NCBI GenBank assembly: GCA_000091205.1 | Contig: AP006484.2 | DNA: 64,000 nucleotides | Strand: one strand, 5' to 3' | Origin: Cyanidioschyzon merolae | Taxonomy: Eukaryota | Part shown: piece after piece, positions 4,231 to 58,737 of the stretch | Layout of the letters: every line of letters begins with the position of its first letter | Numbering within the stretch: position 1 is the first letter of the stretch | Made by a program: the position numbers and the translations under genes | Notes under the pieces: model-generated | Seen by the model: the letters and a program-made list of their open reading frames with translations, nothing else | Databases searched by the model: none | Told to the model about the DNA's origin: nothing

Positions 4231-5337
4231 CGAACTAGTCTAAGGACCGCGTCTTCTGTGTCCAGCGGTGAGCCGCAACCCTTTCCGCAGAATAGCGCCC
4301 AAGTCTTTGGAACTGGAGCTCGAATCACCAGTTCCGCTTCTGGAAGTTGTTACCCAAGTACCTCGACCGGCTACAACCTGATACGTACCCCCGTTTCCAC
4401 TGCGTTCGTTGTGCGTACAGCGTCGATCCCGCGAGCCCTGGGCAGCTCACGAACAGCTGCAGACGGCTGGTCCCAGACGCCTCACAGGTCCTCGGCCTTT
4501 CTAGGCGCAGTGCGAAGCCAGAGCGGTCCCAGTAGGGTAACGGGCTTCAAAAAGCAGCCCCGAACACTCTTGGTCGACACTACAAGCACGTGTCTGGGAT
4601 TTCAATGGACTGCAGTCAACAAGAAGCAAACACACACACACACACAGAGAGAGAGAGCGAGGGCAAGAGAACGTCAAGTCGTTTTCCCTGGAAAAGTCGC
4701 ATCGAGGCGTTGTTGAGCAGGGCGTCCAAGCGCGGCAGCTGCTGCGGAGGGAGTCGTCACACCACCGGGACGTTTGCTTTGGTGTCTTTCCATAACAGCT
4801 ACTTGCAGTTCATCTTGTCGAATGGAAAGCACGCTCTAGCCAACAAGCAACTTTATAGGTCTGTGTGAAGAACTTGCAGTCCCTACCGGCGGAGCGGAGG
4901 CAGCCAACGCTACCTGTTTCGCTCGGAGCAGAAACGGAGCACTGAACAGCAACGAACGCCGCCCTGTACATCACTGCTACAACTACTATTTCTCCGCTAC
5001 TACTACTACTACTACGCTATCACTGCTGCTTCACTGCCGCTCTGGGGGTGCCTTGTGTTTCACGCGCTACCTTTGCGACACAGCAGCTTTCCATAGAGAC
5101 CGCCACCGTCTTTACGGGAAACGAGCGCGCTGCGTGTCCCCACTGGATATATCTCAAACTCTTTGGGCCCGAGCAGCGCTTTTCAAATCGAGACTTTGTA
5201 ACTGTGCGACTGGAAGCACTCACTGGCGACCACTTTCCTGCCAACAACGCGCTGTATGCCCTGGACCAGCTTCAAAGCATCTGCGTCTCGTATCACAACG
5301 CTCACCGGCACGCTATCTGCACAGCACCATTGTCGCT

Positions 5338-35607: not shown

Positions 35608-36705
35608 ATGTTCCAGGGCCACTTGAGAGCCTTGTTGCGATCAGTAGCGAAACCCAGATTGCTTGGAGAACTTGCGTCGAAATCAACTGCATCACGAGCA
35701 CTTGGTCGACAGAGCACGTTTCGGAGTGCGTTCGGTTGCGTCGGCGCAAGCACCTGGCAGCGCGCAGCTCCTGCCTCCACAACAGCAGCGGCGTCGGCTT
35801 CGGCTGATGGCACCGGCGGTGACCGAGAAGCTCGTGCCTGGGACTGGAAACCGAAGGCAGTACCACCAGCGATCGGGGAGGAGATGGTCAAGTTGCACCG
35901 ACAAGCCCCGGATAAGTGGAGTGCGGTGGCGCTCGCGAAGAAGTACGGATATGATGAGCAGTTTGTGCAGGCCACTTTAGAGTTGGCCGAACTGGAAGCA
36001 AGCGTTCGGGCGCAAGTCAGTGAAAAGGAATGGAACGACGTCTTTGAGCCATTAGCTCGCGTTGCGCAGGAGTTCGAGGCCGCTGCAGCCGAACGTGCTG
36101 GACCAGACTGCCTCGTGCTCGGCATACCAGCACCATGGGAAGTCTTTCCGAAAAAGGCTGTGCGAAGTCGGGCATCGCGTATGATCTTCTACCGCGTTCG
36201 ACGCGACGAAAACGTTGAGACGGCACAAGCTCGTGCCGTTCGAGCCCATCTTGGTGCACCGGACGAAAGCGGCATCGCTGATAAGGCGCTGCCCGCTCCA
36301 CACGCGAAGGATGCCGTCGCTGCCTCTGAGGCCTCGGACGCCGGTGGCCGCAGCACGTCATGGCCATCGCAGCCGTCAGTGCGATACGAAGCGAGCGCTG
36401 GGGCAGCGACTGTCCCGAAACCGCGGGTTCCTTTCATTTTCGTGGAGCGCGCGACAAGTCCTGTGTCTGCCAAGACCGGAAAGTTGCAATCCCAGTTGCG
36501 TGTCGTGGTGCGTGATACCGATGGTACCGTGCGCGAACCTCGTCCCGAAGAGAGAAACTTTGCGTTAGCGGCGTTCGGGTATGGAGCATCGGCGGATGAC
36601 GATCCTCGGACGCCGTTGCACCCACGGCATCCTGGTGCGCCGAAGACGCCGCCTCCGCCTCCGCCTCCGCAGTCAACTGTAAGCCAGGAGTCGAATGCCG
36701 CATGA
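35608..36705 (+). CDS. hypothetical protein with mitochondrial-presequence-like N-terminus
   Basis: ATG at 35608, 365 aa. N-terminus MFQGHLRALLRSVAKPRLLGELASKSTASRALGRQSTFRS is Arg/Ser-rich with no acidic residues. The C-terminus is proline-rich (PPPPPPPQ). I recognise no family. Confidence 0.35.
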   Translation: MFQGHLRALLRSVAKPRLLGELASKSTASRALGRQSTFRSAFGCVGASTWQRAAPASTTAAASASADGTGGDREARAWDWKPKAVPPAIGEEMVKLHRQAPDKWSAVALAKKYGYDEQFVQATLELAELEASVRAQVSEKEWNDVFEPLARVAQEFEAAAAERAGPDCLVLGIPAPWEVFPKKAVRSRASRMIFYRVRRDENVETAQARAVRAHLGAPDESGIADKALPAPHAKDAVAASEASDAGGRSTSWPSQPSVRYEASAGAATVPKPRVPFIFVERATSPVSAKTGKLQSQLRVVVRDTDGTVREPRPEERNFALAAFGYGASADDDPRTPLHPRHPGAPKTPPPPPPPQSTVSQESNAA

Positions 36706-36909
36706 TGTGCACGCTATGTATGATGAAAAAGGCAAGTGCTATTCGCCGAGACAGTGCGCACCCGTGGAGGATGCGGGCGGCGGCGTCCACGACGCTCAAG
36801 CAACTGCGGAACACGCTTTCTCGACTACATTGTGTTTTGTAAAATGTCTTTTTAGAAAAAATTCGCGAGATTCGCGCGGCCGATGAAGCGAGGATAGTCG
36901 CGTGCTGAC

Positions 36910-36914
36910 AAAAA
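36910..36914 (-). terminator. Pol III T5 terminator of the permuted tRNA
   Basis: aaaaa on the plus strand, so TTTTT immediately 3' of the trailer on the minus strand. Confidence 0.4.
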
Positions 36915-36921
36915 GCTGGGA

Positions 36922-37025
36922 TACGAGTGCTGCGCTACTACCACTGAGCTACGAAGGCCCGGCGCTGCGTCTTTGGCAGCTGCTGGGTGAGCCTCCGGCG
37001 TGGATCGAACACGCGACCTCAGCAT
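36922..37025 (-). tRNA. circularly permuted tRNA-Thr(CGU) gene (3' half upstream of 5' half, split in anticodon loop 37/38)
   Basis: Minus strand reads leader gctggtgagacgcgcc, then the 3' half a38-TGCTG-AGGTC-GCGTG-TTCGATC-CACGC-CGGAGGC-t73, then a 31-nt linker, then the 5' half GCCTTCG-TA-GCTC-AGTGGTAG-TAGC-G-CAGCA-CTCGTA(37), then trailer tcccagc and TTTTT. The acceptor stem has 7 bp with one G·U. The anticodon stem CAGCA/TGCTG pairs 5/5. The T-arm GCGTG/CACGC carries the TTCGATC loop. The anticodon loop joins across the halves as C-U-C-G-U-A-A. Leader gctgg pairs with trailer ccagc, which is BHB-like. Confidence 0.6.
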
Positions 37026-37067
37026 GGCGCGTCTCACCAGCACATATGCATCAAACTATGAAAAATT

Positions 37068-37080
37068 TCATATATAAAGA
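37068..37080 (-). promoter_or_regulatory. TATA-like element ~30 nt upstream of the permuted tRNA transcript
   Basis: Plus-strand catatataaagac, minus-strand tctttatata, in an AT-rich patch upstream of the leader. Confidence 0.3.
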
Positions 37081-37770
37081 CGCGGTGCGATCAAAATCGC
37101 CGCGCGCAGTACGTCCATTGGTCGTTCTATATACTATACAATTCAGAGCATAAAGGACAAGAAAGCCGCGCGCGCAGTACGGTGTCGTTCCCCGAGGCCA
37201 ATTTCCAGGCGTTTCTCTGGCACGGGAGGTCGCTGCGCAGACCAAGATTTCCCCGGTTGGACGCGCGATATCCGCACCCATCGAAGCGAAAGGGTCGTAA
37301 CAGTGCTCCCACTGAGGCAACTGTGCGTGCGTGCGTATGCCCTTCCAGACTGGTGCCAATAATTAGATTACGCCGTCTTACACCTGCGTTTCGTGCCGAG
37401 ACGCAAGGCGTTCTCCGTATAGCGCCCACACAACTGGTGGACGCTGGCCCTAGCGAGCGTTCGGCAGCAGCCTGTACGAGCCGTTCGCATCTGTCGCTCT
37501 ATGGCAAGGCCTTGATTTCCAGCCGCCGGGGGCAAGTCCGGCGTTTGTCCTTTGTCATCGATCAACCACAGCATACCAGTCTCCAGCGGGAACTTTTCCA
37601 TCAAGAAGAGCGAATCACCGATTTACTTCACACTCGTCGTTGTCGGTATGCCCGTTCTATGAGTTCGTGCTCTTTCCAGGGCTTGCTGCACTGCCCCGAA
37701 CCGGCCCATATAACCGACGCGCGTTCCCCGCGAACGACATTGAAATGGTAGGCGGATCGACGGCACGCTT

Positions 37771-47031: not shown

Positions 47032-48576
47032 ATGCAAGAGGGGAGTGTTACGCAAACGCTGGAGAACAAAAAAGCAATAGACGGAACGGCAAGCACGCTG
47101 AATCCTGTTGTGGCTTCCGGTGACTACCGCATCGCGGACCTGAAGTTAGCCTCCTGGGGTCGAGCCGACATCTCGCTCTCTGAATATGAAATGCCTGGGT
47201 TAATGGAGCTTCGGCGTGAGTACGCTCCGCAGCAACCACTGCGGGGCTTGCGCGTGGCCGGCTCCCTACACATGACAGTACAAACGGCTGTGTTGATCGA
47301 GACGTTACGCGCGCTGGGTGCGGAACTCCGTTGGTGTTCCTGCAACATTTTTAGTACTCAAGATCATGCTGCTGCAGCTGTTGTGGCGGCAGGTACTGCG
47401 CACGTCTTCGCTTGGAAAGGGGAATCCTTAGACGAGTACTGGGAGTGCACGGATCGAGCGCTCACGTGGGCCGACCAAGAGGGTCCCGATCTCATCGTTG
47501 ACGACGGTGGCGATATGACGCTGCTTATTCACGAGGGTTTCAAGGCAGAGAAGGAGTACTCGAGCACTGGAAAGTTGCCGGATCCGGAATCCACGACGAA
47601 TGCAGAGTTCAAGTGCGTTTTGCGTACTATTCGCGAATCAATCCAGCGTGATCCGACGCGTTTCCAGCGAATCGCGAATCGAGTCATTGGTGTCTCTGAG
47701 GAGACGACAACCGGTGTGAAACGTCTCGTGCGAATGGCACAAGAAGGCACGCTCCTTTTCCCAGCGATCAATGTGAACGACTCAGTCACCAAATCCAAGT
47801 TCGATAACATCTACGGCTGTCGCCACTCGCTCATAGATGGCATCGCCCGTGCAACGGACGTCATGCTTGCAGGCAAAGTATGCGTCGTCTGCGGGTTCGG
47901 CGACGTAGGCAAGGGCTGTGCAGAGGCACTGCGCGGCGCCGGAGCGCGGGTATTCATCACAGAAGTCGATCCGATCTGCGCCTTGCAGGCATGTATGCAA
48001 GGGTACACGGTGACAACCCTGGAAGATGTTCTCGACATTGCAGATGTGGTGGTAACTGCCACCGGCAACCGTGACATCGTGATGAAGCACCACATGGAGC
48101 GGATGGCGTATGCTCGGCGACCAGGAGGCGACCAGCCGCCGTCGGTGCCGATCATCTGCAACATCGGGCATTTCGATAACGAAATCGACTGGTCTGGACT
48201 CGTGTCGGATCCGAGCATTGAACGAGTCACCATCAAACCGCAGGTCGACCGTTTCATCTGGCCGCATGGTGGCTCTGTCATCATCCTCGCGGAGGCTCGA
48301 CTCGTGAACCTGGGCTGCGCCACAGGCCATCCATCGTTCGTGATGTCGTGCTCGTTTGCGAACCAGACAATGGCCCAGATTGAACTTGCTGCGAATCGGA
48401 ACACGGGCAAGTACCAGAACTCGGTGTACGTACTACCGAAACATCTGGACGAGAAGGTTGCTCGGCTCCATTTGGCAAAACTTGGGGCGAAGCTTACCAA
48501 GCTCACACCAGAGCAGGCTGAGTATATTGGCGTGGATAGCGACGGGCCGTACAAATCAGCGGCATATCGCTACTGA
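47032..48576 (+). CDS. SAHH: S-adenosyl-L-homocysteine hydrolase (adenosylhomocysteinase)
   Basis: ATG at 47032. The NAD-binding region is [45 protein letters not shown], with [13 protein letters not shown]. The ~40-aa insertion segment is typical of plant/bacterial-type SAHH. The 514-aa product is collinear with the enzyme throughout. Confidence 0.9.
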
Positions 48577-57405: not shown

Positions 57406-58737
57406 ATGAAGCAGACTGAGCCCATGGAAACTGAGACGCAGTCAGAAACGCCTACAGCACCAAGTTCACGTGAGTCCGTTTCTGAGCAGAGCGGGGCGGT
57501 GTCGGCCGAGTCACGGAAGGTGTTGCCTCGGATCGCAAGTGCGGGCAATGAGCTCTATCGCGCAGCGGCGCCTGGTGTGCCATCCGCGGTGACTGCTTCG
57601 TATTCTGACTTTATTGCACAACAGCAGCATTATCAGCAGCAACAGAGAAGTTTAAGCGGCAGTGGTGGCAGCGGTCTTCGTCATAGCTTTTCGTGGGGTT
57701 CGTTCGTAGCGGCACCACCGTTCGCCGTCGGGTATGGAAGCGGTATCGGAGGCAGCGTCCCTAACCTGAGCTCTGGGGCTGCCCCGTTGGGTGCCGCAGA
57801 GATTCTCGCACAAAACGCATACCTCCACTCGGAACTAAACCGGGCGCAGTCGGAAATACAGGCACTACGGAATCGTATTTACGAGCTGGAGATGCACCTG
57901 GGGGTTGCCAGCTGTGGCGTCCGTTCCCCGACTGAAAGAGCATCAACACCTCCAGCTCCGGCGAGCGCTGGTCAGGGCAAGGCGCCAGGCAGCAGCACTG
58001 CGGTCGCTTTGGGCTCTGGGCCAGTGCTGACTGCGCCGCCGCCCTTGCACGTAGCAACTGCAGTTCCGTTTGGAGGATCAGCTGCGATACCGGCTTCTGG
58101 TGTTGGCGCGCTGTACTCTAACAATCGAGTGATGCCCTGCATGTCAATGCCGCATAGCTCGAGTCCACTGAATTTGCCAGCCTGGCGACCAGATCGGTTT
58201 TCGCCGTCTCCACCACCCGCCCAGTTTGGCAGCGGCCTCAGCACCAGCGCTACTACTGCATCTGGGCGCGCGGCATCTGTGCCAAACCAACCGTTTTCCT
58301 CTGCTGGACCTGGTAGTAGTCATGCGCGGCCGGGGCTCGCCGCAAAGAGCATGCTCGCCCGACACGATTCTCTAGGTTCCATCAGCAAAGACAGCCATAA
58401 CAGCCACGCGGATGAATACGGAACTGGGGGTTACAGCAGCAGCAGTGGAAGCAGTCTTCGTATTGGAGAACGTAGACGATCTCAATCATCCTCGAAACGA
58501 CGTGGAAGAGCCTCATCAGTGGGGTCGGCACCGGAGACCGGAACCCCGCAGCCACGGTACTGGACTCAGGAGGAACACCAACGTTTCCTGGAAGCTCTGG
58601 AAAAATTCGGAACCCGGAACGTGAGAGCGATCAGCGAGTATGTTGGTACTCGAAACGCAACGCAGGTTCGCACCCATGCACAGAAGTACTTCTTGCGGCT
58701 CACTAGAGAGGCAGAGAGGAAAACCTCGCGACCATGA
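57406..58737 (+). CDS. MYB-like transcription factor, SHAQKYF class (single Myb/SANT repeat at C-terminus)
   Basis: ATG at 57406. The C-terminus is RYWTQEEHQRFLEALEKFGTRNVRAISEYVGTRNATQVRTHAQKYFLRL. The preceding ~380 aa are Ser/Ala/Gly/Pro-rich low complexity with a short coiled-coil. Confidence 0.7.
   Translation: MKQTEPMETETQSETPTAPSSRESVSEQSGAVSAESRKVLPRIASAGNELYRAAAPGVPSAVTASYSDFIAQQQHYQQQQRSLSGSGGSGLRHSFSWGSFVAAPPFAVGYGSGIGGSVPNLSSGAAPLGAAEILAQNAYLHSELNRAQSEIQALRNRIYELEMHLGVASCGVRSPTERASTPPAPASAGQGKAPGSSTAVALGSGPVLTAPPPLHVATAVPFGGSAAIPASGVGALYSNNRVMPCMSMPHSSSPLNLPAWRPDRFSPSPPPAQFGSGLSTSATTASGRAASVPNQPFSSAGPGSSHARPGLAAKSMLARHDSLGSISKDSHNSHADEYGTGGYSSSSGSSLRIGERRRSQSSSKRRGRASSVGSAPETGTPQPRYWTQEEHQRFLEALEKFGTRNVRAISEYVGTRNATQVRTHAQKYFLRLTREAERKTSRP

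Follow-up and report, generated by a model that had tools for sequence, protein, structure and literature searches.

A circularly permuted tRNA-Thr(CGU) gene of Cyanidioschyzon merolae and its conservation in Cyanidiococcus

Results

Gene anatomy and genomic setting

The window, by which we mean the whole 64,000-nt stretch of Cyanidioschyzon merolae DNA that was analysed, carries on its minus strand the two halves of a tRNA in permuted order, with the 3' half (tRNA positions 38-73) upstream of the 5' half (positions 1-37), as found by direct reading and by a script parse. The features of the locus were read as follows:

37070..37078, minus strand: TATA-like element TTTATATAT, read from the sequence, 45-53 nt upstream of the first exon base
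37065..37061, minus strand: T5 run just past the TATA-like box
37026..37041, minus strand: precursor leader GCTGGTGAGACGCGCC, positions -16 to -1, predicted to be removed at the 3' cut site between C-1 and A38
37041..37037, minus strand: leader arm GCTGG, in the distal leader
37030..37026, minus strand: proximal leader GCGCC, invariant
36990..37025, minus strand: 3' half ATGCTGAGGTCGCGTGTTCGATCCACGCCGGAGGCT, positions 38-73, from the ARAGORN cloverleaf
37025, minus strand: A38, first base of the 3' half
37024..37020, minus strand: 3' strand of the anticodon stem, TGCTG, in the 3' half
37019..37015, minus strand: variable loop AGGTC, 5 nt, in the 3' half
37014..36998, minus strand: T-arm with stem GCGTG/CACGC (5/5 pairs) and loop TTCGATC, in the 3' half
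36997..36991, minus strand: 3' strand of the acceptor stem, CGGAGGC, in the 3' half
36990, minus strand: discriminator U73, end of the 3' half
36959..36989, minus strand: intervening sequence (linker) CACCCAGCAGCTGCCAAAGACGCAGCGCCGG, 31 nt, from the script parse
36922..36958, minus strand: 5' half GCCTTCGTAGCTCAGTGGTAGTAGCGCAGCACTCGTA, positions 1-37, from the ARAGORN cloverleaf
36958..36952, minus strand: 5' strand of the acceptor stem, in the 5' half
36949..36934, minus strand: D-arm, in the 5' half
36932..36928, minus strand: 5' strand of the anticodon stem, in the 5' half
36925..36923, minus strand: anticodon CGT, in the 5' half, within the loop part CUCGUA
36915..36921, minus strand: trailer TCCCAGC, which pairs with the leader and is predicted to be removed at the 5' cut site between A37 and U+1
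36910..36914, minus strand: TTTTT, the presumed RNA polymerase III terminator, read from the sequence

When the two halves were re-joined, the acceptor stem comprised 7 bp with a single T5.G68 (U5.G68) wobble, the anticodon stem CAGCA/TGCTG formed five of five pairs, and the anticodon loop read CUCGUAA (7 nt). Conserved tRNA nucleotides were readable at U8, G18G19, U33, U54U55C56 and G15:C48, while the D-stem contained three Watson-Crick pairs and a C13xU22 mismatch. CCA is not encoded, with CAC following the discriminator T, which is the eukaryotic type. The original prediction had described a 3' half placed before the 5' half across a 31-nt linker, and this order was recovered (36990..37025, 36959..36989 and 36922..36958). 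Its anticodon loop CUCGUAA with the anticodon CGU was reproduced in the re-joined 73-mer, and its stem counts (acceptor 7 bp with one wobble, anticodon 5/5 and T-stem 5/5) were all right, the mismatch in the D-stem having gone unmentioned.

The D-arm (36934..36949, minus strand) was irregular, reading GCTC / AGTGGTAG / TAGC, with an alternative arrangement of four pairs and a bulged U. It resembles a one-base insertion relative to the common ...GGTAGAGC... form and was unchanged in Cyanidiococcus.

The products of three genes within the window were exact matches to C. merolae 10D proteins, namely CMB153C (35608..36705), an S-adenosylhomocysteine hydrolase (47032..48576) and a MYB-related protein (57406..58737), with the CMB locus tag indicating chromosome 2. 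We also observed an ORF of 189 aa with a GTG start (37182..37751, plus strand), flanked by the promoter region of the tRNA gene on one side and by the hydrolase gene on the other. This ORF was called as a gene on metagenome contigs (L001 7569..8138) and had no Pfam match, and it may be a spurious prokaryotic gene-finder call on eukaryotic DNA. Elsewhere in the window, the segment 58001..62000 had a strongly negative GC skew (-0.14 to -0.15) and a negative AT skew, and it was here that GC content reached its minimum for the window (0.49 at 60-62 kb).

tRNA detection and chance controls

The re-joined 73 nt in normal order was identified as tRNA-Thr(cgt) by ARAGORN, and the circular mode of the same program, applied to the native unit, returned the same tRNA-Thr(cgt) wrapping around the ends. 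The original prediction was to be given up if the re-permuted sequence failed to score as a tRNA; ARAGORN calls that sequence tRNA-Thr(CGU). On the native window ARAGORN reported 0 genes, with and without introns, and Rfam at the gathering threshold gave 0 matches. A permissive Rfam scan of the region yielded no tRNA half-matches and returned only a sub-threshold YrlA match and a chance match to Plastid-ycf2. Because the gene is permuted, its native order is expected to be invisible to both ARAGORN and Rfam, and the ARAGORN null result is hence uninformative. A conventional tRNA gene forms a contiguous cloverleaf at the gathering score of Rfam RF00005, and for the native order no such match was obtained.

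As a chance control the window was tiled and each tile was tandem-duplicated and scanned with intron-aware ARAGORN, a design chosen because a gene permuted at 37/38 then looks like an intron-containing gene. This locus alone was found in the 64 kb. In dinucleotide-shuffled sequence the default threshold let through 15 chance loci per 100 windows, and a raised threshold (-ps105) that the real locus still clears let through 0 in 60. The tandem-duplication scan also gave, in a single tile on a related contig, L011 (about 2391-2560), a 'tRNA-His(gtg)' call whose 101-nt intron would sit at position 35; the lenient intron mode probably produced this call by chance.

Identity with the published gene

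Among the 11 permuted tRNA genes that have been listed for C. merolae is Thr(CGT), entered as type II (37/38) with an intervening sequence of 31 bp and no intron (PMC3978253, Table 1). Our locus was identified with this published gene because the anticodon, the junction, the linker length, the absence of an intron and the genome all match, and between the two, from the same organism and with the same 37/38 junction and 31-bp intervening sequence, there was no detectable difference. We are close to certain that the locus is a single-copy, circularly permuted nuclear tRNA-Thr(CGU) gene of C. merolae 10D, located on chromosome 2 downstream of CMB153C and belonging to type II of Soma's classification with its junction at 37/38. 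The gene has been known since 2007, when it was reportedly already published by Soma et al. (Science 318:450), and the present call is correct and is no discovery. Both the ARAGORN call and Table 1 of PMC3978253 thus support the reading of the original prediction as a permuted tRNA-Thr(CGU) gene, whose already-published status that prediction had not recognised. Permuted tRNA genes were discovered in C. merolae, and the predicted list of lineages that have them named this alga but left out the archaeon Thermofilum pendens.

[quoted passage not shown] ACG, the codon read by tRNA-Thr(CGU), was the most used threonine codon in the three verified genes (25 of 76).

Transcription signals

A TATATAT core (37076..37070) was observed upstream, at 29-35 nt from the leader helix and 45-51 nt from the start of the first exon. 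The original prediction of a TATA-like box about 30 nt upstream is accurate relative to the leader helix but not relative to the first exon base (45-53 nt), while the TTTTT that it placed after the trailer was confirmed at 36914..36910, where it is the sole run of at least four T downstream of the presumed start. The 31-nt linker, on reading, contained neither a TATA-like element nor four or more consecutive T. The element TTTATATAT is presumed to act as an upstream RNA polymerase III promoter. As a T5 run (37065..37061) is located just past the TATA-like box, a productive start must lie downstream of that run, and such a start would fit a leader of about 16-20 nt.

In most tRNA genes of C. 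merolae a TATA-like sequence occurs no more than 50 bp upstream, in permuted genes upstream of the 3' half, and the permuted genes carry a T-stretch downstream of the 5' half, with an intervening sequence free of signals and CCA not encoded (PMC3978253). Each part of this published layout (upstream TATA-like sequence, downstream T-stretch, signal-free linker and no CCA) was present at the locus. In C. merolae no TFIIIC subunits for A- and B-box binding are recognisable, and for this reason TATA-directed, TFIIIB-dependent transcription has been proposed (PMC3978253).

Leader-trailer junction

The whole 140-nt precursor, folded unconstrained, had a z of 0.10 against shuffles and a minimum-energy structure without a cloverleaf. 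Folding was switched from the whole precursor to a mini-substrate consisting of the anticodon arm, the leader and the trailer. In the mini-substrate fold the anticodon stem was followed by a 3-nt bulge (C-2, C-1 and A38) containing the 3' cut site, then by a C32:G-3 pair, a U33xC-4 mismatch and the pairs C34:G-5 and G35:C-6, and then by leader-trailer pairing that included GCUGG/CCAGC. The central helix (32-35 with -3 to -6) accordingly had three of four pairs. The surroundings of the 5' cut site (between A37 and U+1) differed among registers, being a 2-nt bulge, a 1x1 loop or else a helix, and alternative leader-trailer registers had similar or better energy. The context of the 5' cut site shifts with the register, and the central helix also contains the U33xC-4 mismatch, so that no strict hBHBh' motif fits. 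The junction is best modelled as a relaxed, hBH-type bulge-helix-bulge (BHB). Yeast pre-tRNAs have an anticodon-intron pair at the position matching C32:G-3.

Shuffled leaders and trailers matched the observed fold energy in 106 of 2000 cases (about 5%) for C. merolae and in 0.5% for L011. The 5-bp leader/trailer helix alone is only modestly better than chance. The original prediction of a BHB-like leader/trailer pairing stood insofar as GCUGG/CCAGC is present within a relaxed motif, but the motif is not a strict hBHBh' and the helix is specific to C. merolae.

Conservation in relatives

We observed the same permuted tRNA-Thr(CGU) gene in the sister genus Cyanidiococcus, in two assemblies of Cyanidiococcus yangmingshanensis (L009:2750-2849, minus strand; L010:2405-2504, minus strand) and in a third related contig, L011 (SRR7903764; about 4245-4354, minus strand). 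In all three relatives the gene was found at the matching position, between an MRP-L20-like gene and a hydrolase gene. The neighbouring MRP-L20-like protein had no detectable homologues beyond Cyanidiococcus-like lineages.

The exons of C. merolae and Cyanidiococcus were identical at 72 of 73 positions, the sole change being U59 to C. The 3' half was 35/36 identical in Cyanidiococcus, and the 5' half was 37/37 identical in both Cyanidiococcus and L011. In contrast, the flanks were 49-55% identical between C. merolae and Cyanidiococcus and barely alignable, and the linker, 27 nt in Cyanidiococcus against 31 nt in C. merolae, was 58-65% identical. As the exons are near-invariant while the flanks and linker have diverged, the comparison indicates purifying selection on functional permuted exons. 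It argues for a permutation and a functional gene that would predate the split of Cyanidioschyzon and Cyanidiococcus.

Parts of the surroundings were also retained. The proximal leader GCGCC and the 3'-site context (the anticodon stem, the bulge with CC before A38, and C32:G-3) were invariant across both genera, the TATA-like core CGTCTTTAT was kept in Cyanidiococcus at about the same distance, and a TTTT was present in Cyanidiococcus at the place equivalent to the terminator. The positions of GCUGG/CCAGC paired poorly in Cyanidiococcus (-0.7 kcal/mol). An alternative helix of +1 to +5 with -7 to -11 had four of five pairs in C. merolae and L009 and five of five in L011, with a swap from U:A to A:U at +1:-7 between C. 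merolae and Cyanidiococcus. The lowest-energy register in Cyanidiococcus was a continuous helix of 8-9 bp in which the anticodon was paired with the leader. From these comparisons the conserved thing would appear to be the 3' cut-site context and the existence of a closing helix, not the sequence of that helix. We lean slightly towards the view that the locus is older than the genus split and that its leader-trailer helix has since been rebuilt with other nucleotides, being GCUGG/CCAGC (-16 to -12 with +3 to +7) in C. merolae and UGGGU/ACCC(A) (-11 to -7 with +1 to +5) in Cyanidiococcus, with the 3'-site bulge and GCGCC left invariant. No report of permuted tRNAs in Cyanidiococcus was found in the literature searched, and the conservation of the gene in that genus, together with the turnover of the leader-trailer helix, is a modestly new element of this analysis.

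A metagenome pattern scan returned only near-identical C. merolae-like strains. The environmental contigs L001-L007 were identical across the gene. The remaining contig, L008, differed from 10D near the gene by three substitutions only, all between the TATA-like box and -19 (L008:6392-6450, minus strand, compared with window 37026..37085), and was identical to 10D from -19 to 160 nt past the terminator. The overall divergence of L008 was about 1%, which is too low for the placement of these substitutions to be significant. No covariation was obtained from L001-L008, which are near-identical strains.

Two observations concern the linker. Its ends could extend the acceptor stem by 2 bp, through U73.G-1 and C:G in C. 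merolae and through U73:A-1 and C:G in Cyanidiococcus, and each of the linkers (C. merolae, L009, L010 and L011) folds into a GC-rich hairpin, with differing sequences. In these models the hairpin and the acceptor extension could be a plain effect of GC-rich composition.

Discussion

Alternative explanations

It is very unlikely, in our estimation, that the locus is a dead relic, that is, a pair of tRNA halves left unprocessed from the decayed tandem duplication of an intron-containing tRNA-Thr. Such relics should exist, because the preferred account of how permuted genes arose is a tandem duplication whose outer segments were then lost (PMC3728597), and the imperfect D-stem is a point on this side. 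However, the exons are 72/73 identical between genera against about 50% for the flanks, and there has been no loss of the TATA-like box or the T-run, nor of the invariant context at the 3' cut site. The locus is also the sole gene for the anticodon CGU (PMC3978253), and the ACG codon is heavily used. We give a little less credence again to a split tRNA, with halves made as separate transcripts and trans-spliced as in Nanoarchaeum and with no circular intermediate. The flanks of both halves can pair near the 37/38 junction, as trans-splicing also needs, but a continuous precursor running from leader through 3' half, linker and 5' half to trailer, and the corresponding circle, have been recovered by RT-PCR for algal permuted genes (PMC3978253). 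The halves here are 31 nt apart on one strand, and this close spacing is kept in Cyanidiococcus (27 nt). The linker, with neither a TATA-like element nor a T run of at least four, does not provide each half with the promoter and terminator of its own that a split tRNA would have.

We consider it exceedingly improbable that the locus encodes a non-coding RNA of the Y RNA-like (YrlA) type, in which one module mimics a tRNA. YrlA (RF02553) was the best match over 36899..37043 (minus strand) in the permissive Rfam scan (23.1 bits, E = 0.0074), but this score is far under the gathering score of 69, and the two halves, once joined, restore the whole anticodon arm, including a 7-nt loop and a sense anticodon; YrlA is moreover a bacterial RNA, whereas the host here is a red-algal nuclear genome. 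In the YrlA alignment a T-arm-like hairpin precedes a D-arm-like hairpin (GUAGCUCA...GGUAG), which is the order of a permuted tRNA, and the sub-threshold match is probably due to this shared order. Such a match could serve as a cheap flag for permuted tRNAs in scans. Least probable of all is a chance juxtaposition of tRNA-like fragments. The lenient intron-aware scan does give about 0.15 loci per shuffled 64-kb window, but none was found in 60 shuffles at the stricter threshold that the real locus passed, the locus is conserved across genera, and it is an exact match to a published gene (PMC3978253).

Proposed maturation of the permuted transcript

For the circularly permuted tRNA-Thr(CGU) gene we applied to the locus Soma's published model for algal permuted tRNA genes. 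RNA polymerase III would start about 25-30 nt downstream of the TATA-like box and produce a single RNA comprising the leader, the 3' half, the 31-nt linker, the 5' half and the trailer, with transcription stopping at TTTTT. The halves would then fold into a cloverleaf while the leader and trailer pair beside the re-formed anticodon stem, giving a relaxed bulge-helix-bulge that may be paired as in the models above. The tRNA splicing endonuclease would cut between A37 and U+1 and between C-1 and A38, and tRNA ligase would join A37 to A38 to give a circular RNA. RNase P and tRNase Z would excise the linker at G1 and U73, and the addition of CCA would come last.

For algal permuted tRNAs, RT-PCR has detected both the linear precursor and the circular intermediate. 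A BHB-type motif marks where the leader and trailer are cut away, a step probably carried out by the tRNA splicing endonuclease, and the ligated circle keeps the intervening sequence until it is opened by RNase P and tRNase Z, after which CCA is added (PMC3978253). tRNAs from permuted genes of C. merolae are charged, as determined by northern and aminoacylation analyses reported for these genes in general (PMC3978253). By analogy with C. merolae and algal permuted tRNAs generally, tRNA-Thr(CGU) would likewise be expected to pass through a circular intermediate and to be aminoacylated.

Comparison with known systems

Other type II (37/38) genes include Gln(CUG), Leu(CAG), Thr(AGU) and Gly(CCC) of C. 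merolae and genes of Ostreococcus, Micromonas and the Bigelowiella nucleomorph (PMC3978253). Like our locus, these have the 3' half first and are joined within the anticodon loop, and the sequence between their halves is short (5-64 bp), while their tRNA identities differ (PMC3978253). Junctions in the green-algal and nucleomorph genes have a relaxed hBH motif, and the green-algal permuted genes, unlike our locus, have only an ambiguous AT-rich region upstream (PMC3978253). The permuted tRNAs of Thermofilum pendens (iMet and Tyr) share the permuted order and a BHB-type junction with the locus, but differ in having the junction at 59/60, an encoded CCA, linkers of 1-7 nt and a canonical intron as well (PMC3978253).

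Compared with a canonical eukaryotic pre-tRNA with an intron at 37/38, the leader and trailer of the locus take the topological place of an intron that has been opened mid-way. The likeness extends to the 3' cut site, which is located in a 3-nt bulge (C-2, C-1 and A38) closed by C32:G-3. Unlike in the canonical case, the 'intron' of the locus has free ends and a linker joins the acceptor ends, and for this reason splicing would yield a circle to be opened by RNase P and tRNase Z.

Significance

Permuted tRNA genes are an exception to the colinearity of genes, and their maturation needs a circular RNA intermediate. The gene described here was recognisable from raw sequence where ARAGORN and Rfam report nothing. 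With near-invariant exons, and a linker and leader-trailer pairing that have turned over, the genes of the two genera offer a natural comparison for the parts of the junction that are needed by the algal splicing endonuclease. If the leader-trailer helix has indeed been rebuilt since the genus split, the cyanidiophyte splicing endonuclease would depend on the mature domain together with the bulge at the 3' site and a closing helix of some kind, and would not need a strict BHB.
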